Shown here: positions 1-37,979 of the stretch, piece after piece
How the letters are laid out: each line of letters opens with the position of its first letter
Position numbering within the stretch: the stretch's first letter is position 1
Source: a virus
Direction: 5' to 3' (one strand)
Length of the DNA: 37,979 nt
Virus record (IMG/VR): IMGVR_UViG_3300017913_000351
Span: 1 to 37,979 of that record
The notes under the pieces: model-generated
Database searches by the model: none
Seen by the model: only the letters and a program-made list of their open reading frames with translations
What the model was told of the DNA's origin: nothing
Made by a program: the position numbers and the translations under genes

Positions 1-141
1 CCGGTCGTCGGTGACGCTAAAGGATTCGCTGAGGCGCGTGATGCGTTCGCTGAAGGTGATTATGGTGAGGCAGCGCTGTTAGGTGGCTTGGGCGTGCTTG
101 GCCTTGTACCGATGCTAGGCGACGTAGCAGCCGGTGCTATC
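1..141. repeat. Terminal direct repeat copy 1, identical to 37839..37979. Interpreted as the contig-end overlap of a circular or circularly permuted genome.
   Basis: Base-by-base reading shows 1..141 equals 37839..37979. The repeat lies inside an open reading frame. Confidence 0.95.
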
Positions 142-1131
142 AAGGGTGCTATGAGCACTGCAGCAGCTCCGATGCGTCAGATCAACCCTAAGTTCTCGAA
201 GCAGATAGAAGGCAGTAATAACCGCAAATTTGATCAAAAACGCGGAGAGGGTATCGATTTCACCGTAGAAGATCGTCCGCTAGAGATTCCGAGCGAGACA
301 CTTTCTTTGGCAGACTTTGAGGGCAGGCCCTATATGTTTGGTCAGTCAGATCGATCGCGTGCAGGCGGTATTCTGACGCAGGTTGGTGGTGCAGATATCA
401 CGCCGATTGATTTGCGTGGCGGTCGAGACTTTATGTTTGATGCGCCATCTCAGGGCATGGTCTGGGCATCAGCACCTGACGTGGTGAACAACATGAGCAA
501 GCAAGCGCAGAGGCTAAAAGACACTTATGGGCAAGATCCGATATTCCTGCCTTACATGATGCAGCCAACTGGGATCGACTTCTCTACGTTCCCCTTGGAT
601 GCAATGATCAATACAGCCCGTGCTGGTATGTCGAAGACCAATATCAAAAAGCTCGATTCCCGCATCCGTAAGGTACTTCCAGAATGGAAGGGCGTTGCAG
701 ATCCAACAGCTAATTACGCGTTCCGCACGGCGACCGGCGACCAACGGAAAGCAATACAGAAAATGATGGATATGGAGTTTAGGGACGTACCCGGCGGCAT
801 GTCGCAGGCGGAAGCTAGGGTCGTGTCGACTGATCCTGCACAGCTAGTCGACGAGGGCGGCATCGTCACAAACGTCGGATTGATCGATACGAGCAGGCCT
901 CTGGTTTATGACAGCGGACACCCAACATATATTCGCGGGCTACCCGGTGAGGGCCTCGGCCGACTAGAGACTCCTGTGACGATCTTCCCTCAATCTCGAT
1001 TGCGCGGTCGTGATATCAGCGACAACCCCACTGATAAACAGCGCGGCGATGCGTTGCGCTCAATGTCGATGAGTCCAGAGGTACAGGAGGGGCTAATCGA
1101 TGAAGAGTTTCTCCGGGCATATTACGACTAG
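1..1131 (+). CDS. C-terminal part of the wrap-around 689-aa virion-associated protein, continuing from 36900..37979. Positions 1..141 duplicate 37839..37979. It carries the end of a pre-toxin-TG-like motif and a ~330-aa domain of unknown function.
   Basis: Codon phase is continuous through the overlap: 36900 and 37839 are both codon starts, and 37839 corresponds to position 1. The stop is TAG at 1129..1131. Track ORF 88..1131 is only the part downstream of an internal TTG. Confidence 0.85.
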   Translation, partial: PVVGDAKGFAEARDAFAEGDYGEAALLGGLGVLGLVPMLGDVAAGAIKGAMSTAAAPMRQINPKFSKQIEGSNNRKFDQKRGEGIDFTVEDRPLEIPSETLSLADFEGRPYMFGQSDRSRAGGILTQVGGADITPIDLRGGRDFMFDAPSQGMVWASAPDVVNNMSKQAQRLKDTYGQDPIFLPYMMQPTGIDFSTFPLDAMINTARAGMSKTNIKKLDSRIRKVLPEWKGVADPTANYAFRTATGDQRKAIQKMMDMEFRDVPGGMSQAEARVVSTDPAQLVDEGGIVTNVGLIDTSRPLVYDSGHPTYIRGLPGEGLGRLETPVTIFPQSRLRGRDISDNPTDKQRGDALRSMSMSPEVQEGLIDEEFLRAYYD

Positions 1132-1148
1132 CACTGAGGTATAATCGA

Positions 1149-1403
1149 ATGAAGCCAGCGAAAGGTAAGGCGAAGGTAAAGCGTACAGCCTCCGGTAAAA
1201 AGGTCTCATATGGACAAGCCGGTAAGGCTAAGGATGGCGGACCGCGAGTAAGGCCCGGAACCAGTAAAGGTAACAGCTATTGTGCTCGTTCCGCTGGTCA
1301 GATGAAGAAGCACCCGAAAGCGGCTGCCAATCCTAACTCACCGCTGCGTCTTTCTCGTAAGCGCTGGAAGTGTTCTGGCACGAAGTCTAGGAGCAAGAAA
1401 TGA
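1149..1403 (+). CDS. Hyper-basic small protein (84 aa), possibly an internal or DNA-associated virion protein.
   Basis: SD-like tgaggt lies about 9 nt upstream. About 30% of residues are K/R. Motifs SYCARSAG and SPLRLSRKRWKC are recalled from small basic proteins of marine phages. The stop overlaps the next ATG (ATGA). Confidence 0.7.
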   Translation: MKPAKGKAKVKRTASGKKVSYGQAGKAKDGGPRVRPGTSKGNSYCARSAGQMKKHPKAAANPNSPLRLSRKRWKCSGTKSRSKK

Positions 1404-7500: not shown

Positions 7501-10324
7501 TAATGCCGCTGGTCTACACATGGAAGAGTCTGACGGTACGTTTGCATTCCAGATATATGGCGACGGTGGAACGTATGGATTCTTAGATGGCGAGTGGGCT
7601 AACTGGGATATTAAGAAAACGAGAAACGGTACATTCCACGTTGACGAAGGCAGCGGTCTAAAGCGTGTTCTTAACGAAGCCAACTGGTCTAGCTATATAA
7701 CAATCCCGACTTCATTACCTGCCAACGGCGGTAACGCAGATACAGTTGATGGGCAACATGCTTCTGCTTTTGCCCCTGCGGGCGGGTCGCTAAATACTAA
7801 CTTCAACGTAAACAAGCTGACCGCAGACTCAGGGGCGAATATCGTTTCTACGTCGGCGAACCCGTTCCGTTGGCAACGAAGTGGAACTGGGCAAACAGGT
7901 CAAGACGATAACGTCACCGTGTTTGTAGATGACTCAAACATCTACTTTACACATAACAATGACGCCGATGGAGACGCATCGAGCTTCCACTTCCGCTACA
8001 CCGCTGGTGGTAATGCGGTCACGATGACCACGATCAATTCGGATTATTTGCATCACTCCTCTGATATCCGTGCGCCCATTTTCTACGACACAGGGAATAC
8101 CGGCTACTACGCAGACCCCAACGGAAACTCACGCTTGTACCGTAGTCACCTTGACTACATAGGTGTCGGCGCTGGTGCAAACAGCTCAGGTTCCTACCGC
8201 ATCAACATGGGCGGTTCGATTGACATGAACGCCAACAACATAGACTACGTTAGTCAGTTGCACTTCAACGACAACGTCCGGTTCTATGATGACGGTAACG
8301 ACAATTACCTTAACTTTAAGTACGGCGACGGCAACTACGGCGGCATCGTAGTTTATAACGGAGGCGGTACTCGCAAGGGGTACTTGTACGCCGACAACAG
8401 CGGCTTTGGTCTGCTAGACAACGACGGTCATTGGGCGCTTCGTACTCAGACAGGCACAAACCCTCTTGAGTTACGCTGTGACAACAACGTCGAATTTCAA
8501 GTCTTTAACTCGTACACGTTGTCGCCCGGATCGTCTCGTGCGCCTGTCTTTTACGATAGTAACAACAGTAGCTACTACGCTAATCCAGCGTCAACGTCTA
8601 ACTTTAATGCCCTAAACGTAGGCGGTAGTCCTGTATGGACAAGTGGTAACGACGGTCCCGGCTCTGGGTTAAATGCCGACCTTTTAGACGGACTTGACCT
8701 GCATACTGGACGGAACAACAACGCAAATAAAGTTGTCCGAACTGACGGTAATGGCTACATACAGGCTGGTTGGATCAATACAACTAGTGGTGCGACAACT
8801 AATACATTAGACAGAATTTACGCTTCTAATGATGGATACATTCGTTACGTAACACCTGCGACTCTAGGCTCGCAACTTAGTTCGCATATCAATTACAACA
8901 ACATCCAGAACAAGCCAACCATACCAGACACGAGCAACCTTGTTACTACCAATACTGCTCAGACAATCTCTGGTGCTAAGACGTTTACTGCAAACGTAGG
9001 TGTAAGCGGAAACATTAGCGCAAACTTCTATGCCTTTAACGGGGCGTACGTTAATGCTACGGCTGATGTACGTGCACCGATTTATTACGATAGAAACAAC
9101 ACAGCTTTTTACATACACGCTGACAGTGAATCGGTACTAGGAAACGTAAGAGCAAACGATTTCCGCTTGTCATCAGGTAATGGCAAAGGTGTACGTTTCT
9201 GGAACAGCAACTCATACAAAATCTATATGTCGTCTACTGGCGATAGTAGCTGGGGCGGACGCGCACCTTACGAGTCTACGTCTGACTACAATATGTACTT
9301 CCGCATGACAGGAGGCACTAACCGTGGTTTTGTGTTCCGTAGCGATACCACCAACGTAGCAGGTATTGACTCTTCCGGTAACTTCAACACAAGCGGAATT
9401 GTTAAAACGGGCAATGGCGCGGCTAGTGCACCAGCTTATTCGTTCACTGCTGACTACGACAGCGGAATGTTTAGTATAGGCAGTAACGCAGTAGGGTTCT
9501 CTACCGGTGGTACTCAAAGATTTAAGATTAACGCTAACGGTCTGTTGTTGACCGGCACTTCATCTCTGTACGTCAACGGTCAGCAGACGATTACGAATAC
9601 TCGCGACATTATGAATGTCGTCAACTACCAGAACACCGATGGTCACATGCAGTTGCACCGCACCGGCGCGGCTCCTTTGATTATTAATCGAAAAGGAACT
9701 ACTGGGTCTTCTGGTACGAGTCGCGGAGAGATACTTAACTTTAAGTCTGCATCTACCAAGATTGGACGCATCGGTTATGCACAGCCTTATGGCGGTTTGC
9801 TTTATTTTGCTACAGGCAACACGTCAGGTTACGGCGTAGGTGTTTATCACTTTTCAACTTCATCAGACCTTCGCCCAGTAACCCATACTGGAGCAAACAA
9901 CGACAATGCTATGGACTTGGGCGCTACGTCTGCTCGATACGATGACGTATACGCTACTAACGGTACGATTCAAACGTCAGACCGTAATGAAAAACAGGAC
10001 ATACAGGCACTAACTGACGCTGAGACACGAGCAGCTACTGCATGTAAGGGGCTGATCCGTAGATTCCGTTGGGTAGACTCTGTTGCAGCAAAAGGCGATG
10101 ACGCTCGTTATCACTTCGGTGCCATCGCACAAGACGTTGAGGCAGCGTTTATCGCCGAGGGACTAGACGCCGGGGACTATGGTCTCTTTATACGAAGCAC
10201 ATGGTGGGAGCACGAGGGGCACTCGTACCCAACAGCAGAGGCAGCACCTACTGGGGCCGTCGAGAAGACTCGGCTGGGTATCCGATACAATCAACTCTTT
10301 GCATTCATTATCAGCACCCTTTAA
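4532..10324 (+). CDS. Giant tail fibre (1930 aa) with an N-terminal anchor, 5 x 18-aa repeats, duplicated modules, a putative carbohydrate-binding insertion and a C-terminal S74 intramolecular chaperone.
   Basis: Single uninterrupted ORF. Fibre motifs include ADTVDGQHASAF, DADLLDGL and R[AS]P[IV]FYD.NNT.YY. The C-terminus reads TSDRNEKQDI...RYHFGAIAQDVE. Confidence 0.9.
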   Translation: MSQTIKLKRGTTTPTTSNIVSGEVAIDTSAQKLYINDAGTIKEIGGGLGSISVSDVPNLPASKITSGTFAAARIPNISGAKITSGTVAAARIANLAASKITSGTFATARIPSLAASKITSGTFDAARIPSLAASKITSGTFDAARIPTLDQYVKTAGDTMSGRLVIEDSSGGDGSWTGGILIDNTATDAGEPAIAFQNSAMGSNYWIVGSNQDNELHFSYGTVFQDGNTKLNLKSDGKLGVGTGANALTHKFNVTGTSLLDGAVHVAEHLYHADDTNTYIRLENDQISIVAGGTTKFHSSNTYLTTSSTINADTVDNLHATSFLRSDANDTATGQITISNTADAQLKLTSPSSWTGIGFNDSAAAGYQYIWHNGEHGTFAIGGGGSNVSGKKLHVDGGMTVGANMDSTATNANGLTVEQDVTAKVFVDRDNSAYYVNPAGLQRQDQIYANWVGIGTSNNTSGSYKLNMGGSIDMNNNHVHYINEAHFNGGSRFKSDGGEGLILRSGSASVSKIRLGTNSDTARGYLYANSSNEIGLLDSDHQWAIRHSRDNYTEFRINNSVKAYLNNDQFYHTSSIRSPIFYDRNNTNYYFHGDSESRLANARVERYFQWAHGKPTNNLGDPTVTEMALFDEQFNNKTLEHATSKVTFWRQQTSSSSWTEYTAVSDSEKKQLLRGAATSSLSIPNLDYKFRIEVDADGYTFANALYMYWSSNSHNTQVHIYKRRCSDNAWIQHTSSSTTVSSWPGHLYLPFSNIPWHETNTTSTGHFNRIRIEFIPNWSGHADYGDRVINLYKMQIWGGYPAGRRTPYYYDENLQYFFPQNIQAYRYYDRDNTSKYVDPAGTSELSHLNVANNITASGNITGARAAFGGTALGSGEDVRLGGIRGRFSNELIHLYNRVNIGYPSGWAGQGAPNYGLSTHGGAQFNVGNVSGAPFTFNGHTIWHAGNDGSGSQLDADLLDGLQGSFYFKSYTNNNGGWSQSNRNFSVRTGGNAAGLHMEESDGTFAFQIYGDGGTYGFLDGEWANWDIKKTRNGTFHVDEGSGLKRVLNEANWSSYITIPTSLPANGGNADTVDGQHASAFAPAGGSLNTNFNVNKLTADSGANIVSTSANPFRWQRSGTGQTGQDDNVTVFVDDSNIYFTHNNDADGDASSFHFRYTAGGNAVTMTTINSDYLHHSSDIRAPIFYDTGNTGYYADPNGNSRLYRSHLDYIGVGAGANSSGSYRINMGGSIDMNANNIDYVSQLHFNDNVRFYDDGNDNYLNFKYGDGNYGGIVVYNGGGTRKGYLYADNSGFGLLDNDGHWALRTQTGTNPLELRCDNNVEFQVFNSYTLSPGSSRAPVFYDSNNSSYYANPASTSNFNALNVGGSPVWTSGNDGPGSGLNADLLDGLDLHTGRNNNANKVVRTDGNGYIQAGWINTTSGATTNTLDRIYASNDGYIRYVTPATLGSQLSSHINYNNIQNKPTIPDTSNLVTTNTAQTISGAKTFTANVGVSGNISANFYAFNGAYVNATADVRAPIYYDRNNTAFYIHADSESVLGNVRANDFRLSSGNGKGVRFWNSNSYKIYMSSTGDSSWGGRAPYESTSDYNMYFRMTGGTNRGFVFRSDTTNVAGIDSSGNFNTSGIVKTGNGAASAPAYSFTADYDSGMFSIGSNAVGFSTGGTQRFKINANGLLLTGTSSLYVNGQQTITNTRDIMNVVNYQNTDGHMQLHRTGAAPLIINRKGTTGSSGTSRGEILNFKSASTKIGRIGYAQPYGGLLYFATGNTSGYGVGVYHFSTSSDLRPVTHTGANNDNAMDLGATSARYDDVYATNGTIQTSDRNEKQDIQALTDAETRAATACKGLIRRFRWVDSVAAKGDDARYHFGAIAQDVEAAFIAEGLDAGDYGLFIRSTWWEHEGHSYPTAEAAPTGAVEKTRLGIRYNQLFAFIISTL
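4706..4975 (+). repeat. Five tandem 54-nt (18-aa) coding repeats, consensus LAASKITSGTF.AARIP.
   Basis: Fibre aa 59-148 form 5 consecutive units. The copies differ mainly at synonymous positions. Confidence 0.9.
9977..10324 (+). other. Peptidase S74-type intramolecular chaperone auto-processing domain. Predicted cleavage is N-terminal to Ser1816.
   Basis: The motif QTSDRNEKQDIQAL (Ser-x-x-x-x-Lys dyad context) is followed by FRW...YHFGAIAQDVEAA, as in endosialidase and fibre C-terminal chaperones. Confidence 0.75.
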
Positions 10325-14998: not shown

Positions 14999-15496
14999 AT
15001 GTCAGGTGGCAAGGGCGGAAGCCAAAGCACAAAGGTCAAAATACCGCAGTACATCGAAGACGCTGCACGTCGGAACCTAGCGCGCGCAGAGGAGCTGGCA
15101 GAGGTCGGTTATATGCCGTACTACGGCCCTGAGGTCGCTGCGTTCAATCCAATGCAAACGCAAGCGTTTCAGAATACTGCAAATGCTGCGGCGGCGTTTG
15201 GCCTTGGGGCACCGATGGATGTAATGGCTGGCATGCCGCAGGCGCAAGACTTCGGTAACGGCATGATGGGCTACGGCAGTGGAGATCTTTTCCAAGGTGC
15301 TGTCGATCAGTTCGCTGCTAACAACCCGGCGCAGTACAACCAATATACGCAAAACTTTAGCGGTCCCTTAGCGAGTAACGCACAAGGGCCCTACGGACCA
15401 TATAGCCCTGTGCCCGGTGGCGGCGGCAAAGGTGGTCGTATGCCCACGGGACCATTGGGTGGCGGGATGCCACCCGGATCAGGAGGACAAGTCTAA
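14999..15496 (+). CDS. Gly-rich virion or internal protein (165 aa).
   Basis: SD aagga. Conserved-looking N-terminus IPQYIEDAARRNLARAEELAEVGYMPYYGPEVAAFNPMQ. The TAA overlaps the next ATG. Confidence 0.65.
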   Translation: MSGGKGGSQSTKVKIPQYIEDAARRNLARAEELAEVGYMPYYGPEVAAFNPMQTQAFQNTANAAAAFGLGAPMDVMAGMPQAQDFGNGMMGYGSGDLFQGAVDQFAANNPAQYNQYTQNFSGPLASNAQGPYGPYSPVPGGGGKGGRMPTGPLGGGMPPGSGGQV

Positions 15497-16299
15497 TGGC
15501 AGGAGCAGCTCCAGCAGGCGGTCAGGCGCAAGGCGCTCAAGGCGGTCAGCCAGCGACAGGTGGCAAGGGTGGCGGCGCAGGCGGTCAGCCAAGCGTTTAT
15601 CAGCAAGCGGCCGGTGGTCAAAGTGCGGCAATGGCCGGTACTGCCGCGGGTATGGGTTACAGCCCACAGCAAGTGCAAGCTGGGCAACTAGCTAACACTG
15701 ATCTCAGCGCTTACTACAATCCTTTCGAAAATCAGGTCGTGCAGCAGAGCCTGCAGGACATTGGTCAGTATGCACAGCAGCAAGGCAATCAGCTCGCAGC
15801 GCAAGCGCAGCGCGCGGGTGCGTTCGGTGGGTCGCGTAGTGCCATTTTAGAGTCGCAAGCAAATGAGGCGGCTCTACAGCAAGCGGCACGAACAGCGTCA
15901 GGTCTGCGGTTGGGCGGATTCCAGAATGCACAGCAAATGGCAATGCAGGATATCGGCAACCAACTTAACGCTGATCTTGCCAATCAGGGCGCTGATCTGA
16001 CTGGCGCGAATCTGCGTTTAGGCGCTGCTAATCAGATGGGCGGCTTGGCTAATCAAGCGTTTAATATGGGTAACACCCTCAACAACCAACTAATGACTCA
16101 GGGCACTATGCAGCAAATGTTGCAGCAGCAGATCTTTGATCGAGCCAGAGGTCAATTTGAGGGCTATCAAAACTTCCCGGCGCAGTCGCTTAGCTTCATG
16201 GCTCAAGCGCTGGGTGCGACACCGACACCGCAGTCTCAGACTACGTCGCGCCAGCCCGGCTTGTTTGACTATCTCACCCTCGGATTGAGTGCAATGTAA
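15496..16299 (+). CDS. Gln/Gly/Ala-rich virion or internal protein (267 aa).
   Basis: TAATG-coupled on both sides. Contains the motif AGAFGGSRSAILESQ. Confidence 0.65.
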   Translation: MAGAAPAGGQAQGAQGGQPATGGKGGGAGGQPSVYQQAAGGQSAAMAGTAAGMGYSPQQVQAGQLANTDLSAYYNPFENQVVQQSLQDIGQYAQQQGNQLAAQAQRAGAFGGSRSAILESQANEAALQQAARTASGLRLGGFQNAQQMAMQDIGNQLNADLANQGADLTGANLRLGAANQMGGLANQAFNMGNTLNNQLMTQGTMQQMLQQQIFDRARGQFEGYQNFPAQSLSFMAQALGATPTPQSQTTSRQPGLFDYLTLGLSAM

Positions 16300-17983: not shown

Positions 17984-19887
17984 CGCCAGCAGAAGAGCGA
18001 GCTAAGAGAGCGTTGAGCAGGTCTCAGCCGAGCCAAGAGGCTATGGCTGCCATCTACCCAGAAAGCAGGCCTCAGGACTATGCGCGCAGTATCGCTCAGG
18101 GTGCGACCTTCGGCTTCGGTGATGAAATAGAGGCTGCAATCGCGGCGATCGTTCCCGGCGGCGAGGGCTACGATGATCGAGTAAAGCGCGTTCGCTCAGA
18201 GCTGAAAGCTTGGCAAGAGGCTAACCCCGGAACAGCAATGACAACCGAATTGGCTGGTGCAATTATCCCGGCGATTTTGACCTTCGGTTCTGGCGCAGCC
18301 GTTAGTGGTGGTGGCGCACTGGCTCGCGGCGTTCGTTTAGCGAAGGTAGGAGCTGCTGAAGGCGGTCTAGCTGGTGTTGGCTACTCTAATGCTGAGTCAG
18401 CAAAAGAGGCTGCTGGCGGCTTCATTGGTGGAGCTGCGACAGGCATGATTGTTAGCCCAATACTGGGTGTCGCTGGTTCCGGTGTTGTAGACATCGCAAA
18501 AAATATGTTCGGAAACGGCGCATCAAGCATTGTAAACGCTGAGCTTCGCAGGCTTGCTGAGTCTACTGGAAAGTCGGTAGACCAAATTGTCGATGATGTG
18601 GCGAACGGCCGTATCATGGCTGAAAACGAAACACTCAAGGCGGCCGTGAAGGTTTACACGCAGCGCAGTGGCGCAGAAGGCGTGAAAGCTGTGGAAAAAG
18701 CGAAGGATCGGCAGCGTAGCACCAGCGTGCAGGCTCAAAGAACCATTCGTAAAGGTTTGACGCCGGACAATCTAAAGCTTGACGACAATTTGCGCGCGGC
18801 ATTTAAAAGATCTGATGAAGAGCTACGGCTGCTTGAAAAGCGTGATTATGCTGAAGCGTTTCCAAAGGGAACAATCGTCCCTGATGAATTGAGTCTTTTG
18901 GTAACGGATGCAGCAAATCGCGTACCGCAGGTAATTTCTGACCTAAACAAGATCAGCAGAGCAGAAGGTTTGCCGCCCCTATTCAAGAAAAATAGAGAGA
19001 CCGGCTTTTACGAAGCGACACGTCCGCTCGATATGATGGACGTAGAAACTGCGCGCCGGGTGCTGCGTGATCAGTCTGACTCATTGTTCCGCAGCGGGCA
19101 GGGCACGGTAGGCACTTCGGTAGCATCGATACGAGATGAGCTGCAGGACGCGTTCTACAAAACATATGACGGCTCAGATGGTGGGCGCTCAGTCGAAAGC
19201 GTGGTCAATGCAGCGGCTGTACGGCGACAGCGTAGTGATGCGTTTGAGGAAGGCAGGAAGGCGCTCGGTAAGGGCCTTGAAGACGTTGAGGTGATGGTTG
19301 AAGACTTGTCACCAGAAACAGTGGCTGCGTTCCGGGCGGGTTTCATGTCCGCCATTAGAAACAAGCTGCGAGCGCAAGAAGCGCCAATGGGGCAATTTGC
19401 CAGTGAAAACAGGCTAGGAGCCAAGCTGCGGGTCGTATTCCCGGAGGCGGATCTGCCTACTTTACAGCGCGATCTAGACACGGCTCGCGGCGCGGAAGAG
19501 CTAGTGCAATATTTAAAAGGGCAAAGCTCTACTCAGCCGATGCAAGATGCTGCATCGCAAATTGGAACCGGCACTGTGAATGTCGCGGCTAATTTAGCGA
19601 CTGGAAATATGCTAGGCGCTGCGCAGGCTGGGGTACAAGCGCTGCAAAGGATGGTGGCATCTGCAACACCAGAGTTGACGCAAGAGCAGCACGCGCAAAT
19701 TTTGCGTGTCTTAATGAACGAATCCCCCGGCATGGTAAGAGACGCTCTGACAGACAAAACGCTTGCAGAGCGCATTACGCCAATCATCAGACAAACATCA
19801 GCTAGGCTCGGTCATGGCATAAGACAGCAGGGTGCTGTGCAGGTCGGTGGCAACGTCGGCGGTATCTTGGGTGAGGAATACAGATGA
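17980..19887 (+). CDS. Large internal virion (ejection-like) protein (635 aa) with Gly/Ala-rich hydrophobic segments.
   Basis: ATGA-coupled. N-terminus QGATFGFGDEIEAA and hydrophobic GAIIPAILTFGSGAAVSGGG...GGAATGMIVSPILGVAG. Confidence 0.6.
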   Translation: MTPAEERAKRALSRSQPSQEAMAAIYPESRPQDYARSIAQGATFGFGDEIEAAIAAIVPGGEGYDDRVKRVRSELKAWQEANPGTAMTTELAGAIIPAILTFGSGAAVSGGGALARGVRLAKVGAAEGGLAGVGYSNAESAKEAAGGFIGGAATGMIVSPILGVAGSGVVDIAKNMFGNGASSIVNAELRRLAESTGKSVDQIVDDVANGRIMAENETLKAAVKVYTQRSGAEGVKAVEKAKDRQRSTSVQAQRTIRKGLTPDNLKLDDNLRAAFKRSDEELRLLEKRDYAEAFPKGTIVPDELSLLVTDAANRVPQVISDLNKISRAEGLPPLFKKNRETGFYEATRPLDMMDVETARRVLRDQSDSLFRSGQGTVGTSVASIRDELQDAFYKTYDGSDGGRSVESVVNAAAVRRQRSDAFEEGRKALGKGLEDVEVMVEDLSPETVAAFRAGFMSAIRNKLRAQEAPMGQFASENRLGAKLRVVFPEADLPTLQRDLDTARGAEELVQYLKGQSSTQPMQDAASQIGTGTVNVAANLATGNMLGAAQAGVQALQRMVASATPELTQEQHAQILRVLMNESPGMVRDALTDKTLAERITPIIRQTSARLGHGIRQQGAVQVGGNVGGILGEEYR

Positions 19888-21941
19888 CATTACGGAAACT
19901 CGATGCTGGCGACGTAGAGTCAATCGTCAGAGACGCGGTAACAGAGGCAATTGATTTCGTAGAGTCAGAGATTGCTGACGAGCGAGTCAAGGCGCAGCGC
20001 TATTTCGATGGCGCAGTGGATATTGGTGATGAAGACGGTCGCAGCTCCATTGTTGCGACAAAGGTCCGTGACACTGTCCGAGCTATCAAACCGTCTCTAA
20101 TGCGTGTCTTTTTGTCGACTGACAAGCCCGTCGAGTATGTTCCCCGGGGGCCAGAAGACGTGCAGGTGGCAGAGCAGGCCACAAAGTATATGCACTATCA
20201 GTTCTCTGAGCTAAATGGCTACCGGGTACTCAACGATGCAATGCATGACGCGCTGGTGAAGAAATGCGGTGTCGTAAAGGTTTACTGGGACGATTACGAA
20301 GAGCAAGAGGTTTACGACTTAACCAACCTAAATGATCAAGAGCTAGGCCTACTGATACAAGAGAAGGGCCTTGAGGTGCTTGAGCGTAAGACAGAGATGT
20401 CGATGCAGATCGGTCCTGAGGGTGTAGAGGTCGAGGTGCCATATCACTCAGTAAAAGTGGCCCGGAGCACGTCTAGCGGCAAGATGTGTGTTGAGAGTGT
20501 TCCGCCAGAAGAGTTTTTTGTGAATCGGGACGCTCGGTCTATCGATGATGCTTACATCGTCGCTCACCGCACTGAGATGCGTGTAGGCGACCTCGTGGCT
20601 ATGGGGTACGACTATGACGACGTCTATGACTTAGGCGGCGATAGCGACACTGACAGCTACGCTGAGGCGGAGCGCTTTGAGCGTCGTGGCTATGATGAGA
20701 CTGACGACACACAAAGCTACATGGACCCAACGATGCGTGTTGTGCTCGTAACTGAGTGCTACATGAAAATCGATACAGAGGGCACCGGCATACCGCAGCT
20801 CCACAAAATTACGTTAGGGGGCAACAAGTACAAGCTTCTCGATTACGAGCCTTTTGCTCACATACCGTTTGCTGTGTTTGAAGTCGATCCTGAGCCTCAC
20901 ACATTCTATGGTCGTTCGATTGCTGATCTGATCATTAACGATCAGGATGCTTCGACAGCAATGCTGCGAGGTGTGCTAGATAACGTCGCTTTGACTAACA
21001 ATCCACGTATTGAGATTGTTGATGGCGCTGTCAATGTGGATGATCTACTCAATAATGAGATTGGTGGTGTTATACGTGTCAAACAATCTGGCTCTATAAA
21101 CACGCAGGCTGTCCCATTTGTCGCTGGTCAGACCCTGTCTGCCTTACAGTATTTCGATCAGCAGGTCGAAGACAAAACAGGCGTCACAAAGTCGTCTACC
21201 GGGCTCGCAGCAAATGCCTTGCAAAATCAGACGGCAACAGCAGTACAGGCTACGGTCACAGCGCAGGCTGCACAGATAGAGGTAATGGCGCGCAACCTAG
21301 CAGAAGGCGGTATGCGACAGCTATTCAAACTCATGCTGAAGTGCATGGTTGAGAATGTTGATGAGCAGGTCATGATGCGTCTTAGTGGTGATCAGTATGT
21401 CCCGGTCGATCCTCGATCTTGGAATGCTTCCATGGATCTCAGCATCAACGTAGGGCTCGGAACCGGGCAAGAAGACCAGAAGGTCGCAGTGTTGAATCAA
21501 GCGCTTGGTATGCAAATGCAAATATTTCAAGCGTATGGCCCGGGTAACGGCATGGTGTCGCTAACTAACATTCGTAACACGTTGGCTGATATCCTTGCTA
21601 TATCCGGGGTGCGCAATTCTGACCGTTACTTTATGCCAATGAATCCACAGCTTGAGCAGCAGATGCTGCAGCAGCAACAAGCGGCACAGGGACAGCAGCA
21701 AGCCGATCCTAATGCAGCGTTCTTGCAAGCAGAGCAAATGAAGATGCAGGCTAAAATGCAGTCAGATCAGGCTAAAATGCAGCTAGAGATGCAGAAAGCG
21801 ATTGCGGCAGATGACTTGAAACGCGATCAAATGGACCAAGATTTATTGCTGTCGGCAGCAGAGCTGTTGGGCAAGTATGGAACAGCCGTAGAGGTCGAGC
21901 GCATCAAGCAGATGCAAAACGAGCCTAGATACCAGCAATGA
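19884..21941 (+). CDS. Portal protein, P22-like family (685 aa).
   Basis: N-terminal pattern RYFDG....DGRSSIVATKVRDTVRAIKPSLMRVF...VEYVP..PED...AEQATKY. Size and a Q-rich helical C-terminal tail as in P22-type portals. Followed by scaffold and MCP. Confidence 0.8.
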   Translation: MTLRKLDAGDVESIVRDAVTEAIDFVESEIADERVKAQRYFDGAVDIGDEDGRSSIVATKVRDTVRAIKPSLMRVFLSTDKPVEYVPRGPEDVQVAEQATKYMHYQFSELNGYRVLNDAMHDALVKKCGVVKVYWDDYEEQEVYDLTNLNDQELGLLIQEKGLEVLERKTEMSMQIGPEGVEVEVPYHSVKVARSTSSGKMCVESVPPEEFFVNRDARSIDDAYIVAHRTEMRVGDLVAMGYDYDDVYDLGGDSDTDSYAEAERFERRGYDETDDTQSYMDPTMRVVLVTECYMKIDTEGTGIPQLHKITLGGNKYKLLDYEPFAHIPFAVFEVDPEPHTFYGRSIADLIINDQDASTAMLRGVLDNVALTNNPRIEIVDGAVNVDDLLNNEIGGVIRVKQSGSINTQAVPFVAGQTLSALQYFDQQVEDKTGVTKSSTGLAANALQNQTATAVQATVTAQAAQIEVMARNLAEGGMRQLFKLMLKCMVENVDEQVMMRLSGDQYVPVDPRSWNASMDLSINVGLGTGQEDQKVAVLNQALGMQMQIFQAYGPGNGMVSLTNIRNTLADILAISGVRNSDRYFMPMNPQLEQQMLQQQQAAQGQQQADPNAAFLQAEQMKMQAKMQSDQAKMQLEMQKAIAADDLKRDQMDQDLLLSAAELLGKYGTAVEVERIKQMQNEPRYQQ

Positions 21942-22198
21942 ATATAAAGGATAGAGCGACTCATGTTCGCAGGCTGCAAGAAGATGAGGCCTTCAACATG
22001 ATGATCGAAGAGATTAAGGAGGACGCGGCCAACGTCTTCCTAAACCCGCACTCTTCTAAGGAAGACCGGGAGGAAGCCCATCACTTAGTGAGGGCGTTAG
22101 CAAAGTTCGAGGATCGTATGGCCCAAATCCTAACGGATGAGGCGATCCACGACAGAAACGAGAGGAGATCAGTACCGTGGAAGCGACTGATGAATTGA
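21938..22198 (+). CDS. Hypothetical protein between portal and scaffold (86 aa).
   Basis: ATGA-coupled to the portal gene. Charged and helical. Confidence 0.6.
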   Translation: MNIKDRATHVRRLQEDEAFNMMIEEIKEDAANVFLNPHSSKEDREEAHHLVRALAKFEDRMAQILTDEAIHDRNERRSVPWKRLMN

Positions 22199-23169
22199 GC
22201 AACGACGCAACGATTAACGATGCGCTAGAGTCTTTATTTACACAGCAAGCAGCGGAACCTACTGCTCAGGCAGAGGATACCTACGAGGAAGAGGCCGAAG
22301 AGGCTGAGTACGAAGAGGTAGACGAGTCGGAGGTACAGGAAGAAGAGGTAGACGAGCTTGATGACGATGAAGGCGAGGAAGTCGACGAAGAGGAGGCTGA
22401 AGAGGAGTCTGATACATACACCGTCAAGGTCGACGGCAAGGAGTATGAGGTAACCCTCGAAGAGCTAAAGCGTGGCTACAGCGGGCAAGAATTTATCCAG
22501 AAGGGTATGGCCGAGGTCGCTGAGCAACGTAAAACTTTTGCCGACAAGCTCAAGCTCGCAGAGCAAACTAACGCTCTACTGGAGCAGGCGAAGCAATACC
22601 AAATGCAGTTGAACCAACGACAACAGCAGCCCGGCTTTGGTGTGCCGCCAACACCTCCAGACGAAAGTCTCATTGAAACAGACTTCGTGGCCTACAATCA
22701 GGCAGAGGCTCGCTATAGACGCGAATTGCAGGAGTACCAAGAAGCCGTGCAGCTCCAGCAGCAAACAGAGCAGTATGTCCAGCACGCTCAAGAGCAGGCA
22801 CAAAGGGCATACGTTTCGGAGCAGCTAGAAACTCTCAAAGCAGAGATTCCAGAATTTGCTAACCCGGAAACAGCACCCGCGGCGCGTGATCGCATCTTGC
22901 GCACTGCGGAGAAGTTTGGATTTACGGCAGAAGAGATCGCTGGTGTTACCGATGCACGCACCATTCGTATCCTTCATCGTTTTGCGGAATTGTTAGAGGT
23001 CGAAGCAGGCGCTGACAAAGCCATTAAAGACGCTAAGCCAAAACCCAAGCGCGTTGTGAAAGCGGGCGCAAAGAAGCGGCAAAACCGAAACAAGAAGCAG
23101 CAGGATGCGCGAGCCCGCATGAAAAAGAGCGGGAGCATGGATGATGCTCTCGAATATTTATTTACCTAA
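22177..23169 (+). CDS. Scaffolding protein (330 aa), GTG start.
   Basis: SD gaggag lies 9 nt upstream of the GTG. Long poly-acidic N-terminal tract, Q-rich coiled coil and basic C-terminus. Position between portal and MCP. Confidence 0.7.
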   Translation: MEATDELSNDATINDALESLFTQQAAEPTAQAEDTYEEEAEEAEYEEVDESEVQEEEVDELDDDEGEEVDEEEAEEESDTYTVKVDGKEYEVTLEELKRGYSGQEFIQKGMAEVAEQRKTFADKLKLAEQTNALLEQAKQYQMQLNQRQQQPGFGVPPTPPDESLIETDFVAYNQAEARYRRELQEYQEAVQLQQQTEQYVQHAQEQAQRAYVSEQLETLKAEIPEFANPETAPAARDRILRTAEKFGFTAEEIAGVTDARTIRILHRFAELLEVEAGADKAIKDAKPKPKRVVKAGAKKRQNRNKKQQDARARMKKSGSMDDALEYLFT

Positions 23170-23184
23170 ATTGAGGATATAGTC

Positions 23185-24141
23185 ATGGCACAGGTATCTA
23201 ATACCCATGATTCATACGACATGAATTCAATCCGTGAGGACTTGTCGGATGTGATCTACAACATCTCGCCCACAGAGACACCTTTCCTGTCTTCGTGTGC
23301 AAAAGTTTCAGCGTCTAACACTCTGCACGAGTGGAGCACTGACACGCTTCGCGCGTCAGCAGATAACGCGCACATCGAAGGTGACGAGACCACTTTCGAG
23401 GCACGCACCAGCGTAACTCGCCTCGGAAATCGTACTCAGATCTTTAAGAACGCGGTTATCGTTTCCGACACCGACGCAGGTCTTTCAAAGGCTGGCCGAG
23501 GCAAGGAAATGGGCTACCAAATTCTGCAGGTTCTGTCTGAGCAGAAGCTTGATATGGAGCGCGCGTGCTTCCTAAACCAAGCGGCGGTCACTGGCTCATC
23601 TACTGTGGCTCGCAAGATGGCCGGTCTCGGTGCATGGGTCGCAACTAACACATCAAAGGGCACTGGCGGTGCTGATTCTAGCGGTGACGGCTCTGATGCA
23701 CGTACCGATGGTACTCAGCGTGCGTTTACTCAGGCGCTCTTTGATGACGTTATGCAGTCATGCTGGGAGAGTGGAGGTAACCCCGATAAGGTTTACCTAA
23801 ACGCATTCCAGATGACCAAGGCGCTTGCGTTCACTGGTATGAATAACCAGCGTTCTACTATCGGCGCTTCTGTCGGTGGCACAAACGCTGTAATCAACGC
23901 TGTCGACGTATATGTGACTCCATGGGGGACCGTCGAATTCGTTCCTTCTCGCCAATGTCGTGCGCGTGATGTGTACGTTATCGAGAGCGACAAGTTCGCG
24001 ATTGCGACACTACGTCCAACCAAGCAAACTGAGCTTGCGAAGACTGGTGATGCAGCTAAGCGTCAAGTGGTTACAGAGGCGACTCTGGTTAGCCGCAACG
24101 AAGCAGCTTCTGGTATGGTCGCAGACCTTACAACTTCGTAA
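23185..24141 (+). CDS. Major capsid protein, DUF5309/SU10-type HK97 fold (318 aa).
   Basis: The N-terminal motif REDLSDVIYNISPTETPFLS....NTLHEWSTDTL....NAHIEGDE is typical of this MCP family. SD gagga. Followed by a strong terminator. Confidence 0.8.
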   Translation: MAQVSNTHDSYDMNSIREDLSDVIYNISPTETPFLSSCAKVSASNTLHEWSTDTLRASADNAHIEGDETTFEARTSVTRLGNRTQIFKNAVIVSDTDAGLSKAGRGKEMGYQILQVLSEQKLDMERACFLNQAAVTGSSTVARKMAGLGAWVATNTSKGTGGADSSGDGSDARTDGTQRAFTQALFDDVMQSCWESGGNPDKVYLNAFQMTKALAFTGMNNQRSTIGASVGGTNAVINAVDVYVTPWGTVEFVPSRQCRARDVYVIESDKFAIATLRPTKQTELAKTGDAAKRQVVTEATLVSRNEAASGMVADLTTS

Positions 24142-28106: not shown

Positions 28107-28431
28107 GTTCACCGAACCTAAGCTGATATCGCAAGAAGAGATGGATGCACTGCATGGCAGTATTGAGGCCTTGCAGGCGCTATCCGCATACAGCAAGCCC
28201 GCTGCTGTACGAATCCAAGAAGCTGAAATGCACGCTCGTGCTCAAGACTACATAGAGGTCGCTGAGCAAGACTATATTCGAGGCTGGACGGATTGCGAGA
28301 TCGGCAAAAGTCATTTAGATGCAAGTGATGCATACAACGCAGGTTATGGCGACTGTTATGAGTATGAACAGCGTCAAAACATCGAGCCAGTAATTGGTTC
28401 TTACGAAGAAATGTCTAAGGGAGACAAATAA
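28099..28431 (+). CDS. Small acidic early protein (110 aa).
   Basis: Its start overlaps the upstream gene. Net charge is about -12. Confidence 0.7.
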   Translation: MSKFTEPKLISQEEMDALHGSIEALQALSAYSKPAAVRIQEAEMHARAQDYIEVAEQDYIRGWTDCEIGKSHLDASDAYNAGYGDCYEYEQRQNIEPVIGSYEEMSKGDK

Positions 28432-29186
28432 TGGAAGTAACATTTAAAGAGTTATCCGAAATCGATTGTTCTGAGTACATCGAAAAACGGCCTCAAGGTA
28501 AAAAAGATCTGAGCTACATATCGTGGTCAGACGCGTGGCAGTTACTTAAAGAGAATTGCCCGGATGCAACCTACGAGCATCACCCATGGCAGACCCTGCC
28601 GTCCGGTGAGGTGATGTGCTACTGCTCTGTGACTGTGGGCGGTGTTTCGCATACAGCTCACTTGCCAGTGCTCGACGGCTTTCGGCCGGTAGTAAATCCT
28701 AATGCTTTCGAGATCAACAGGACGATGCAGCGATGCTTTGCAAAGGCGATCGGTATGCATGGCCTCGGTCTCTACATTTACCGGGGAGAAGATCTGCCGC
28801 CATCGGAGACGATGTATGAGCTTGCAATGCAGCATCTCGAAGAGAGCGAGTACGAGGCTGCTATGTGGTATATGCAGCTATCCGAACAGGACCAAGGTCT
28901 TGTCAAGAAAACCGCACCTCAGGGCAAGAAAACAGAGATCCAAAATCGCTTGAGGGACGTCGTCAGCGCTGCTCACGATGTTCTCGATGCAGCGGCTATG
29001 GACATCAATAAGTATTTTGGTGCCGATGACATCCCCGGGGTCGCTCAGGTTTGGAATGAGCTAACGGTGTTTGAGAAGGGCCTAGTTTTTGCGCGACTGG
29101 GCGGTGAAGGCCAAGAGAAGCTAAACGCGCTGCTGAACAAGGGCGTAGCACAAGAGGAGGCGACCGATGTCGAGGGGACTGAATAA
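28431..29186 (+). CDS. sak: Single-strand annealing protein, Rad52-like Sak/DUF1071 family (251 aa).
   Basis: Matches the DUF1071 pattern as I remember it: LSYISWSDAWQLLKENCPDATYE....VGGVSHTAHLPVLD.....NPNAFEINRTMQRCFAKAIGMHGLGLYIYRGEDLP. Confidence 0.7.
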   Translation: MEVTFKELSEIDCSEYIEKRPQGKKDLSYISWSDAWQLLKENCPDATYEHHPWQTLPSGEVMCYCSVTVGGVSHTAHLPVLDGFRPVVNPNAFEINRTMQRCFAKAIGMHGLGLYIYRGEDLPPSETMYELAMQHLEESEYEAAMWYMQLSEQDQGLVKKTAPQGKKTEIQNRLRDVVSAAHDVLDAAAMDINKYFGADDIPGVAQVWNELTVFEKGLVFARLGGEGQEKLNALLNKGVAQEEATDVEGTE

Positions 29187-35309: not shown

Positions 35310-35612
35310 ATGGCGCAAACACGAAAGCAAAAGATCAGCGAAGATCTGCAATGGGGTGCTCGACGAGCTGAAGAGCTAGAAGAGCTAAAAACTCAAGTAT
35401 TTGATTCTCAAAAGAAAGTACGTGAGCTGGACCCTGAGGAAAAGTATTTTTACAAGCGGCTTAAGCAGCAAGAGGTACTACAGGCTAGTTACTTCAGGCT
35501 GCTCAATAAGTATTGGCCCGACGTAAAGTCTATCGAAGCAGACCTAACTAGCAGCGATGGCTCAATGAGCCCGCCCACGGTGATCGAGCTTGTCGCAAAA
35601 ACTCTCGATTGA
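35310..35612 (+). CDS. Putative terminase small subunit (100 aa), assigned by position only.
   Basis: SD gagga. Coiled-coil protein immediately upstream of terL and overlapping it. Confidence 0.4.
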   Translation: MAQTRKQKISEDLQWGARRAEELEELKTQVFDSQKKVRELDPEEKYFYKRLKQQEVLQASYFRLLNKYWPDVKSIEADLTSSDGSMSPPTVIELVAKTLD

Positions 35613-36870
35613 ACTACCGCCAAAGCTAACCGAGCTGTTTGCCGGGGAGGCACGTTACCGCTGTTCATACGGTGGCCGCGGCTCAGCCAAGACACGTAGC
35701 TTCGCGCTGATGACCGCTGTCTGGGGTATGCGCTGGGGCATGGCCGGGAAGCAGGGCCAAATACTCTGCGCCCGGGAGCACCTCAATTCGCTCGATGAAT
35801 CATCGATGGAAGAGGTGAAGTCAGCGATACGGTCTGTCCCTCAGCTCGCTGCCTACTACGAGATCGGTGAGCGGTACATTCGATCAAAGGATGGCCGGGT
35901 TACCTATGTCTTTGCCGGGTTACGGCGCAACCTCGACAGCATCAAGTCTAAGGCACGTATCCTGCTCTGCTGGGTAGATGAGGCCGAGACGGTGAGCGAG
36001 ACGGCGTGGCAGAAGCTCATTCCCACAGTGCGAGAGGATGACTCGGAGATCTGGGTTACGTGGAACCCGGAAAACAAGCACAGCCCTACGCACCATAGAT
36101 TCCGTGAGGTGACACCAGAAGGGTGCAAGATCGTCGAGATGAATTGGCGAGACAACCCGTGGTTCCCTGATGTTCTTGAGCGAGAACGGCTTGAGGACAA
36201 AGAGAAGCGCCCGGATGTTTACGAGCATATCTGGGAGGGTGACTTTAAGGTCTTCTCAGAAGGCGCGTATTACACGATAGAGATGGCTAATGCGTTGCAC
36301 GATGGTCGCATAGACCGGGTGCCATACGAGCGCTCTGTGGGCGTTGTGACGGCGTGGGATCTGGGGGTGGGTGACAGCACGGCAATTTGGTTTGCGCAGT
36401 TTGTCGGGCCCGAGGTGCGCGTCATCGACTATTACGAAAACGCTGGTGTGGGTCTGGACCACTATGCACGCGTGCTGCAGGAAAAAGGCTACATCTACGA
36501 CCACCACATCTTGCCGCACGATGTTCGGGTGCGAGAGCTGGGTAGCGGCCGGTCTCGATTAGAGGTGCTCGACAACCTCCGGGTGTCCCCGGTAGAGATA
36601 GCGCCTCAGCTAAACGTAGACGATGGCATACAGGCGGTGCGGTCTATGCTGGACCTTTGCTATTTCGACAAGGAAAAGTGCGAGAAGGGTATCGATTGCC
36701 TGCGCCAGTACCGGCGGCAATACAATGAGACCATGATGGTGTGGGCGGAGAAGCCATTGCACGATTGGACGTCTCACGCTGCAGACGCATTCCGCTACCT
36801 TGCCATCGGTTACCGGGAAACCTCCGACTGGGGCCAGCCCATTAGGCGAAATCTAAAGGGCATTGTTTGA
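35590..36870 (+). CDS. terL: Terminase large subunit (426 aa), TTG start.
   Basis: Walker A-like YGGRGSAKT about 27 aa from the start and Walker B ILLCWVDEAE. Size and C-terminal nuclease-like region fit PBSX/Terminase_3-like TerL. The first in-frame ATG lies beyond Walker A, so the TTG at 35590 (SD-like ggtga upstream) is required. Confidence 0.88.
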   Translation: MSQKLSIELPPKLTELFAGEARYRCSYGGRGSAKTRSFALMTAVWGMRWGMAGKQGQILCAREHLNSLDESSMEEVKSAIRSVPQLAAYYEIGERYIRSKDGRVTYVFAGLRRNLDSIKSKARILLCWVDEAETVSETAWQKLIPTVREDDSEIWVTWNPENKHSPTHHRFREVTPEGCKIVEMNWRDNPWFPDVLERERLEDKEKRPDVYEHIWEGDFKVFSEGAYYTIEMANALHDGRIDRVPYERSVGVVTAWDLGVGDSTAIWFAQFVGPEVRVIDYYENAGVGLDHYARVLQEKGYIYDHHILPHDVRVRELGSGRSRLEVLDNLRVSPVEIAPQLNVDDGIQAVRSMLDLCYFDKEKCEKGIDCLRQYRRQYNETMMVWAEKPLHDWTSHAADAFRYLAIGYRETSDWGQPIRRNLKGIV

Positions 36871-36880
36871 TACAATAGGG

Positions 36881-36895
36881 CCTCCATACTGGAGG
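36881..36895 (+). promoter_or_regulatory. Hairpin CCTCCA-TAC-TGGAGG followed by T4. Its 3' arm is the SD of the next gene.
   Basis: 6-bp stem. GGAGG lies 5 nt upstream of ATG 36900. Confidence 0.55.
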
Positions 36896-36899
36896 TTTT

Positions 36900-37979
36900 A
36901 TGCTTCGCAATCGCGCATCTGGCATTCTTGAAGAGCTATTTAGCTCTGCCAATTCGACGGAAGAGCTTATAAGTGAGTTGACGTATGACCGGGGATATCC
37001 GGGAGAGGTCGCTGAGAAGATCGCTTATGGTGAGCTTGATATGCGGCCCGGAGCTATCGCAGAGCGTAGTGCAGATTTTACTAAGGGCGACCCTACTGTT
37101 TATTTCCACGGCGGGTATATGCCTGCTAATCAATTTCGTGGCGACGGCGATTTAGTCTTCGCGACTCCAGATCCTTTTCTGGCTAACACCTATATACCAA
37201 ATAATGGGGCATTTAACGCGCTGAGTGGACAGCTTTACCCGTTACGCATAGACACGTCTGATTTTTTAAGGACAGACGCGCGCGGCGATAACTGGGGAAT
37301 GATAGAGCTGAACGACATTCTAGGCCCTGATGACAGTGTGTTATATCGTGGAGAGCGTGGCCGGTACTATGAGACCGATCAGCTCGGCGACATGGCAAGG
37401 CATAATAATTTCCCGGGCATTTTTATCGACAACGTAGTTGATGTCGGCGATAACTACCGAATAGCTAATAAAGCACTTCAAGATGCGCAGCACCCACTGC
37501 TTACACGATTTCAGTCGCTAGAAGATGGGTCAGATATAGTTGCTGTCAATGATCCTACTAAAGTTCGTTCGCAGTACGCCGCCTTCGATCCCGAATACAA
37601 AGGGCCTAATCTTCTCGGGGCAACTGCAGCCGCTGGTGTAGGTCTTGGTGCAATGGGTGCGTCAAATGACGCCATGAGCGCAGAAGAGCGCTACGGCACC
37701 ATAGAGCCCTATGAGCCCGGGATGGTCGAAGGTGCAGTTCAGAGTGTTGCTCAGTTCTTCAAAGACGCCGGGCTGACTGACTCCGATTACACCGCAAATC
37801 AAATGGCTGCGAGTCTATCTGATTTGGCAGATTTCACTCCGGTCGTCGGTGACGCTAAAGGATTCGCTGAGGCGCGTGATGCGTTCGCTGAAGGTGATTA
37901 TGGTGAGGCAGCGCTGTTAGGTGGCTTGGGCGTGCTTGGCCTTGTACCGATGCTAGGCGACGTAGCAGCCGGTGCTATC
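36900..37979 (+). CDS. N-terminal 360 aa of the wrap-around 689-aa protein: a putative ART-like (polyvalent-protein-type) domain, Gly-rich hydrophobic segments, and the start of a pre-toxin-TG-like motif.
   Basis: ATG 36900 has a GGAGG SD. The frame is open to the window end, so the ORF is absent from the track. Motifs are VYFHGG, LVFATPDPFLANTY, IVAVNDPTKVRSQYAAFDP and DFTPVVGDAKGFAEA. Confidence 0.85.
   Translation, partial: MLRNRASGILEELFSSANSTEELISELTYDRGYPGEVAEKIAYGELDMRPGAIAERSADFTKGDPTVYFHGGYMPANQFRGDGDLVFATPDPFLANTYIPNNGAFNALSGQLYPLRIDTSDFLRTDARGDNWGMIELNDILGPDDSVLYRGERGRYYETDQLGDMARHNNFPGIFIDNVVDVGDNYRIANKALQDAQHPLLTRFQSLEDGSDIVAVNDPTKVRSQYAAFDPEYKGPNLLGATAAAGVGLGAMGASNDAMSAEERYGTIEPYEPGMVEGAVQSVAQFFKDAGLTDSDYTANQMAASLSDLADFTPVVGDAKGFAEARDAFAEGDYGEAALLGGLGVLGLVPMLGDVAAGAI
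37839..37979. repeat. Terminal direct repeat copy 2, identical to 1..141.
   Basis: Exact identity read directly from the sequence. Confidence 0.95.

Follow-up and report, generated by a model that had tools for sequence, protein, structure and literature searches.

The virus record IMGVR_UViG_3300017913_000351 of IMG/VR, analysed here over its whole length of 37,979 nucleotides (the window), is a podovirus-type genome in which the terminase gene terL (35590..36870, + strand) is immediately followed, on the same strand, by a gene for a protein of 689 amino acids (aa). The protein has a mass of 74.9 kDa and an isoelectric point of 4.6, and contains no Cys. It is built of four modules, comprising an N-terminal leader (aa 1-61), a divergent ADP-ribosyltransferase (ART) domain (aa 62-232), a connector (aa 233-371) and a C-terminal domain (aa 372-689). 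Judged by its sequence, the protein belongs to the class of polyvalent proteins described in 2017 and, via intermediates, to the ART-PolyVal family. It joins at least two unrelated domains that are recombined across many architectures, and it is encoded among the late, virion genes of a terminase-portal phage. An earlier reading of this DNA, made from the letters alone (the original prediction), had covered about one quarter of the protein and missed both the connector and the C-terminal domain.

The gene is interrupted by the ends of the record. Comparison of the two ends of the window shows that bases 1-141 are an exact repeat of bases 37839-37979; the contig behind the record is therefore circular and 37,838 bp long, and its linear form includes 141 nt of assembler overlap. 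The open reading frame (ORF) starts at ATG 36900, preceded by a GGAGG at 36891-36895; an in-frame TAG lies upstream at 36876-36878, with no start codon in between. Read from this ATG, aa 1-360 are encoded by 36900..37979 (+), and the frame then crosses the join into 142..1131 (+), which encodes aa 361-689 and closes with a TAG stop codon at 1129-1131. The terminal overlap itself (1..141, the same as 37839-37979) is an assembler artefact and codes for aa 314-360 once. An independently assembled Logan contig, L008 (SRR8557218, 7,597 bp), crosses the junction without duplication and is 100% identical to the circularised window over its whole length, junction included. It holds the 689-aa ORF uninterrupted, its two parts contiguous, between a fragment of terL and the same downstream genes. 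A second 689-aa copy, with at least 90% identity, is found on a 16,967-bp JGI contig, and a TARA contig carries, in the same place, a 696-aa protein of the same architecture and 81% identity (P0002). A search of 5.8 billion proteins returned 50 homologues, with expect values (E) down to 0. The 689-aa ORF is a real gene, split only by an arbitrary linearisation point, and the original prediction of an ORF running from ATG 36900, behind a GGAGG Shine-Dalgarno sequence, through the overlap is borne out by the terminal repeat, the continuous frame and the identity of L008. It had also been right that the listed ORF at 88..1131 (TTG start, 347 aa) is an internal-start remnant of this gene; the full-length frame was absent from the ORF list, as the tool omits ORFs that run off the end of the window.

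The contig break (37839-37979, equal to 1-141) sits within the connector, at the segment that is best conserved among proteins whose flanking modules differ, and is probably an assembly-graph branch point common to co-occurring phage variants. It also coincides with an apparent recombination hot spot right after ...GDVAAGAIKG. A break in such a segment, typical of a graph branch point, is what would be seen if the 689-aa ORF were an assembly chimera of two strains, joined through the conserved connector at the contig ends. Such an origin is extremely improbable; it is ruled out by the identity of L008 across the join over all 7,597 bp, and the further copy on the JGI contig and P0002 on the TARA contig also speak against it. 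Two other proteins, P0225 (415 aa) and P0226 (272 aa, with 71% identity to the ART core), each come from an ENA contig with a recorded length of 7,845 bp and may be the two halves of one split gene copy, either frameshifted or mis-called.

The modular construction of the protein became apparent when it was compared by BLAST with its 50 homologues. The N-terminal part (aa 1 to ~240) is also found joined to different C-termini, which contain DUF7178, a PBECR5 RNase, or LPD23 together with a DUF6782 metallopeptidase. The C-terminal part (aa ~372-689) is likewise found with different N-termini, among them canonical ART-PolyVal, and also with PcfJ or DUF3990 partners, in proteins of up to 1,965 aa. 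An LPD23 domain within the 689-aa protein itself was ruled out, as the LPD23 of the relatives starts exactly where their sequences diverge from it. Among 50,697 phage records, tblastn found only one weak match, to the C-terminal domain in phage C72C1; with P0039 as the query, Roseobacter phage CRP-902 and one uncultured record were added.

The N-terminal leader (36900..37082, +) forms four helices in the AlphaFold model, and in the family alignment (A1) eight of its residues never vary (P34, A38, E39, I41, G44, L46, M48 and R56). The connector (aa 233-360 at 37596..37979 and aa 361-371 at 142..174, both +) comprises an invariant AAFDPEYKG-N-LG motif, a Gly/Ala-rich stretch and a conserved helical block, with a hydrophobic segment at aa 337-362 that begins at position 37908. 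Gly and Ala together make up 36% of this module. Its hydrophobicity peaks at aa 337-356, where the maximum 19-residue Kyte-Doolittle mean, 1.78, falls within the transmembrane range. Over aa 280-360 the connector is ~85% identical to that of P0042 and P0048, the C-termini of which differ, and the sequences diverge completely just past ...GD-AAGA-KG.

The ART-PolyVal family (PF18760) is defined by a His in strand 1, a Tyr in strand 2 and an Asp in strand 5, and is placed in the Tox-ART-HYD2 clade (Iyer et al. 2017, PMC5512222). The divergent domain of this type in the 689-aa protein (37083..37595, +) is recognised through its relatives. Three full-length relatives with 29-36% identity, P0032, P0046 and P0048, pass the PF18760 gathering threshold (32-35 bits against 31.2), with matches at aa 54-106 that correspond in the alignment to aa ~65-112 of the query; the family is matched in 10 of the 22 members. 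A hidden Markov model (HMM) was also built from the 16 sequences of the insert-bearing clade to which the query belongs, limited to aa 62-232. This clade-only HMM matches canonical members in two pieces, at HMM positions 4-61 and 155-177, and the domain of the query is therefore taken to be a canonical ART-PolyVal domain with an insert of ~90 aa. The insert (aa ~118-210; 37251..37529, +) is specific to the clade, falls between ART strands 4 and 5, and is modelled at a predicted local distance difference test score (pLDDT) of 83-95. In hhalign comparisons the clade core aligns with the canonical rows at 96-97% (E 1e-9 to 4e-11), always in the same register, which places H70 on the canonical His and holds for aa 62-120 alone.

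The tail motif V-F-D-P-x-x-[IV]-R-S-x-x-A-x-F-D-P is common to the family and to P0024, a protein in which an ART-PolyVal domain covering Pfam model positions 9-134 stands in an unrelated architecture. The AlphaFold model of aa 1-245 (pLDDT 80.4; predicted template-modelling score, pTM, 0.76) has the element order β1-α-β2-α-β3-β4-[insert]-β5-β6, which fits the minimal ART core, and all of its top 50 fold matches in the PDB, none of them significant individually, are ARTs, namely the ParT toxin and tankyrase PARP domains. Taken together, these comparisons indicate a homology to ART-PolyVal that is transitive but consistent. An ART-type domain of the polyvalent class, as had been claimed in the original prediction, is thereby supported, in the same transitive manner, by the relatives that pass PF18760, by the alignment of the clade profile to canonical members and by the fold matches. 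The motifs quoted there are present, namely FHGG at aa 69-72, LVFATPDPFLANTY at aa 85-98 and IVAVNDPTKVRSQYAAFDP at aa 213-231, and the tail motif that it had named, [IV]RS....FDP, proves to be a true feature of the family that extends to P0024.

Candidate catalytic residues can be assigned from these alignments. The strand-1 His is His70 of FHGG (37107..37109, +), which is aligned with the HG[TS] of canonical members and lies in a modelled strand at aa 67-72. At the strand-2 position, where canonical ART-PolyVal members have Tyr, both the hhalign and the MAFFT register place Phe87 of LVFA (37158..37160, +), within modelled strand E86-89. A second aromatic residue, Tyr98 of ANTY (37191..37193, +), is nearly invariant. 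The strand-5 Asp is, by alignment, Asp218 of VNDP (37551..37553, +), which matches the D of ...V-F-D-P-x-x-[IV]-R-S and is aligned with the FDP of P0024 and of the canonical rows. D218, at least 90% conserved in A1, was preferred over D212 and D177/D181 as the putative catalytic acid because it is conserved family-wide and fits the published description of an Asp in strand 5. H70, Y98 and D218 are all kept in the query and in its close relatives (60-88% identity). With Phe87 in place of Tyr, one aromatic residue is conservatively exchanged for another. Changes from Tyr to Phe are mild in effect where these residues stack on nicotinamide in diphtheria toxin and exotoxin A, and enzymatic activity despite Phe87 is therefore plausible.

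The C-terminal domain (175..1128, +; 318 aa) represents an unnamed family. Its AlphaFold model, computed from an alignment of 16 sequences, is of high quality by its scores (pLDDT 88.7, pTM 0.86), and no matching fold was found for it in the PDB (best E 0.26, template-modelling (TM) score <0.13), nor any Pfam or PHROG family in any of the 16 members. Among the predicted viral structures of BFVD, 17 proteins match it at E ≤ 1e-3. All but three are uncharacterised and almost entirely from uncultured Caudovirales; the exceptions are a PcfJ-like protein, a NAT_SF protein and, from Flavobacterium phage elemoC, a "Structural protein". An exhaustive HMMER search of 1.84 billion representatives brought the family to at least 2,083 clusters at 50% identity (E ≤ 1e-3), 726 of them matched at E ≤ 1e-30. 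The domain may be placed N-terminally, in the middle or C-terminally in proteins of 350 to 1,965 aa. It also occurs as a stand-alone gene (~460 aa) between terL and an SU10-type portal gene, on two contigs and in phage C72C1 (hhalign 99.7%), and within a 1,033-aa fusion encoded directly 3' of a P22-type portal gene and before the capsid gene. Large, unnamed and structurally unmatched, the family is a sizeable annotation gap among phage head modules.

Over 201 members, 16 polar residues of the C-terminal domain are at least 80% conserved (E420, D430, R431, W468, S470, D506, R562, K563, D570, R574, R586, Q594, N604, H620, Y623 and R666), and the set D430-R431, S470, D506, R562-K563, D570, R574, R586, H620 and Y623 is enzyme-like. 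It is possible, and put forward only tentatively, that this is a structurally new domain found in many podophages, serving either as a capsid-incorporation and ejection anchor for effectors fused to its N- or C-terminus, analogous to MuF and of independent origin, or as a new enzyme. If this were so, the domain and the near-invariant hydrophobic connector would form, in marine podoviruses of the roseobacter type, a modular delivery system of "constant chassis plus swappable warhead". The domain may also be equal to an LPD that Iyer et al. (2017) described and that was never taken into Pfam.

Downstream of the 689-aa gene lie an 84-aa ORF (1149..1403, +), which is kept in the relatives, and then, in the same operon-like array, two virion genes, for an SU10-type adaptor (1652-2275, +) and a Gp80-like protein (2272-2685, +). 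The last two were identified by phrog_2941/phrog_240 matches in the window and by PF24175 and PF23140 on the identical genes of L008. In the window the array continues into the tail genes. The order terL, 689-aa gene, 84-aa ORF, SU10 adaptor and Gp80 is conserved, and the position between terL and the adaptor is kept in the window and in four related contigs; the original prediction had correctly placed the gene directly after terL. That terL itself is matched by phrog_3717 and phrog_2 (E 4e-63), with 55% identity to the terL of Paracoccus phage KLEP18-1. A scan of the array for terminators found no terminator-like site on the + strand between terL and the downstream structural genes. Further along the window are a gene for a tail fibre of 1,930 aa with an S74 chaperone (4532-10324), which accounts for 15% of the genome, and the genes for the portal (19884-21941; phrog_1216, E 8e-152), the scaffold (22177-23169) and the major capsid protein (23185-24141). 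A portal would be the first expectation for a gene that follows terL, and this identity was ruled out for the 689-aa gene by the portal at 19884-21941. Family matches within the 1,930-aa ORF, to tail fibres or tail spikes and to the S74 chaperone, are confined to its final ~460 aa; none was obtained for the first ~1,460 aa.

The nearest cultured phages infect Rhodobacteraceae, these being Octadecabacter Antarctic DB virus 2 (portal 46% identity) and Paracoccus phage KLEP18-1, and the relatives derive from marine metagenomes. In Octadecabacter Antarctic DB virus 2 (L011) the same unusual order of terS, terL, slot gene, adaptor, tail genes, portal and capsid is found. Its slot gene, gp6 (2752-4233, 493 aa), is not homologous to the C-terminal domain, a relationship that was ruled out by hhalign (0.2%). 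Different phages seem to use the slot after terL for unrelated cargo genes. One relative (L001) has a PAPS-reductase-like gene, at 5220-5960, inserted between terL and the polyvalent gene, and a PAPS-reductase-like gene is also annotated at 1-526 of phage C72C1 (L007). In the early region of the window, 28431-29186 encodes a Sak-type single-strand annealing protein (PF06378, E 7e-37). Together with the NinB and NinG of relatives, it suggests that this group of podoviruses has a lambdoid-like module for recombination.

Immediately upstream of the 689-aa gene, an extended -10-like element, TGATACAAT (36868..36876, +), overlaps the stop codon of terL. Identified by its match to the consensus, it is kept as TGATATAAT in relatives, including the one in which the PAPS-reductase gene takes the place of terL directly upstream. 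It is followed by a hairpin (36876..36900, +) in which the GGAGG Shine-Dalgarno sequence pairs with an upstream CCTCC; the RNA fold has a free energy of -15.3 kcal/mol (z -3.2), and the 5' arm is only partly conserved in relatives. Together the element and the hairpin may provide a promoter and control of translation where the structural array begins.

These features are best accounted for, with moderate confidence, by a compact polyvalent protein from the late structural array after terL, probably delivered with the virion and acting as a host-modifying ART. The protein would be co-expressed late in infection with terL, and its constant parts (the leader, the connector and the C-terminal domain) would carry it into the capsid. 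On infection it would leave the capsid with the DNA, and the ART domain would then use NAD+ to mono-ADP-ribosylate a host macromolecule early in the infectious cycle. Packaging, injection and NAD-dependent activity are proposed here from comparison and from one precedent. The precedent is gp47 of phi24B, a 2,811-aa polyvalent protein of a podovirus, which was found in virions by proteomics and is proposed to be an ejection protein (bioRxiv 10.64898/2026.04.10.717836). The comparative arguments come from head-packaged ARTs encoded beside terminase or portal genes (PMC5512222, PMC9503650). The literature yielded no biochemically or experimentally characterised member of the ART-PolyVal family.

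A number of results weigh against a delivered, active ART. Neither the 689-aa protein nor its ART domain alone matches any Pfam family at E ≤ 1, the ART-PolyVal gathering threshold being missed, and the whole protein is without a match in PHROGs and NCBIfam as well. Searches of PDB sequences with profiles of the ART and C-terminal domains gave chance-level matches only. None of the Foldseek matches of the N-terminal model is significant, the best having an E of 0.25, with TM scores of 0.28/0.40 and identities of 6-11%. Against four ART-PolyVal domains of unrelated architecture, the clade core aligns by hhalign in the same register and weakly (E 0.003-0.005, probability 7-11%), and a database-wide search with the clade-only profile of the insert-bearing ART core (A4) recovered 2 proteins, none of them labelled PF18760. 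In the profile and structure searches that the original prediction had advised, a direct Pfam match and a significant fold match were not obtained; the PF18760 matches of the relatives, the hhalign alignments and the exclusively ART content of the top 50 were. With these caveats, each part of that prediction that lends itself to computation held. At the catalytic positions, the Tyr of the family definition is lacking in strand 2, Phe being found in 14 of 16 clade rows against Tyr in all canonical rows. The His70 column contains K, T or S in 4 of the 22 relatives in A1, which are probably pseudo-enzymes, and in these the leader and the motifs that follow the ART domain are invariant. Family invariants lie mostly outside the catalytic core, in the leader and in R223...AAFDP-Y-G-N-LG, a distribution that suggests conserved interactions beyond catalysis and would also fit a structural role. 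As for the C-terminal domain, gene position is the only ground for a proposed role in packaging. Its homology to MuF was ruled out by hhalign (1% to SPP1 gp7), and no match to Phage_Mu_F was found in the 16 members at E ≤ 10.

Several of these points would be expected of a structural internal or ejection protein in which the ART domain is a degenerate, dead scaffold and the work is done by the leader, the hydrophobic connector and the C-terminal domain, for example by forming or assisting a trans-envelope conduit or by keeping hold of the DNA end at the portal. The clustering of invariants away from the catalytic positions, the change from Tyr to Phe and the loss of the His in some relatives all point in that direction. 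So do the connector, which with its transmembrane-like segment is the best conserved part of the protein, the ability of the C-terminal domain to stand alone beside a portal gene, and the ejection role proposed for phi24B gp47. A purely structural protein is nevertheless considered fairly unlikely, as the query and its close relatives retain H70, Y98 and D218, a Phe can still stack on nicotinamide, and the window already encodes candidate ejection proteins, matched by phrog_4287 at 14999-16299. The ART could instead be active and unpackaged. It would then act in the cytoplasm, either late in the infectious cycle or during lysogeny, and its targets would be components of the host or the phage, for example in shut-off, superinfection exclusion or toxin-like competition. 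The HYD2 clade does occur in polymorphic toxins and in the toxins of toxin-antitoxin systems, the nearest PDB fold is that of the ParT toxin, and the extended -10-like element just upstream could allow independent expression. Yet the gene is tightly embedded in the array of virion genes in every relative, no antitoxin-like partner is evident, and the fusion to a domain that adjoins terminase and portal genes would be left unexplained; this alternative is accordingly regarded as quite improbable.

Virion-delivered, host-modifying polyvalent proteins, the kind to which the 689-aa protein is assigned under the favoured reading, are already known. What is new is an ART variant that has Phe in place of Tyr, carries a 90-aa insert and is invisible to Pfam, together with a near-invariant hydrophobic connector and a C-terminal domain recognised as a large, unnamed and structurally unmatched head-module family. 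The ARTs of polyvalent proteins are predicted to be the commonest protein-modifying warheads delivered with DNA by phages and conjugative elements. The present example is small (75 kDa, four modules, in a 38-kb podovirus), and its clear module borders and natural chimeras make the delivery and enzymatic roles separable by experiment. Standard annotation misses such genes, in this instance through the split at the linearisation point and through the absence of both domains from Pfam, PHROGs and NCBIfam.

Among known systems, the closest is ART-PolyVal itself, with which the protein shares the N-terminal position of the domain, the strand-1 HG motif, the S/T-P-x-x-A-x-x-Y helix and the D-P-x-x-[IV]-R-S...A-x-F-D-P tail. 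Members of that family are likewise found in multi-domain proteins among late genes, and the homology runs via intermediates that pass the Pfam threshold. The 689-aa protein differs in that it is unrecognised by the Pfam model, has Phe in strand 2 and bears the insert of ~90 aa before strand 5. Its clade is also rare, with 2 further proteins found by the clade-only profile. The ParT/RES-type ART toxins and the tankyrase PARP domains, which are its best Foldseek matches, all have H-Y-E-type ART cores, and at E values of 0.25 and above, TM scores of 0.28/0.40 and 6-11% identity the likeness is at the level of fold only. The multi-domain proteins gp50 of N4, a virion RNA polymerase, and gp47 of phi24B are of the same class, are packaged in virions and come from podoviruses. 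These are, however, proteins of 2,800-3,500 aa with RNA polymerase, LPD1/5/38 and metallopeptidase domains, compared with 689 aa and no peptidase domain here.

The logic proposed for the 689-aa protein is that of T4 Alt, an ART that is synthesised late, travels in the phage head, is set free together with the DNA and modifies host proteins. Alt belongs to the R-S-E (Alt/VIP2) clade, which is absent from polyvalent proteins (PMC5512222). The 689-aa protein has H-(F/Y)-D in place of R-S-E and no sequence match to Alt, and it is without the T4-type capsid-targeting sequence or prohead protease context; one phage is a podovirus and the other a myovirus, and the analogy is functional only. The C-terminal domain, for its part, shares with MuF/SPP1 gp7 both a genomic niche, which lies between the terL and portal genes or directly behind the portal gene, and fusion to variable effectors, a likeness that does not amount to membership. 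In contrast to MuF fusions, its effectors are found N-terminal as well as C-terminal of the domain. By these comparisons, the 689-aa protein would work like both T4 Alt and the MuF-effector fusions while being a member of neither.

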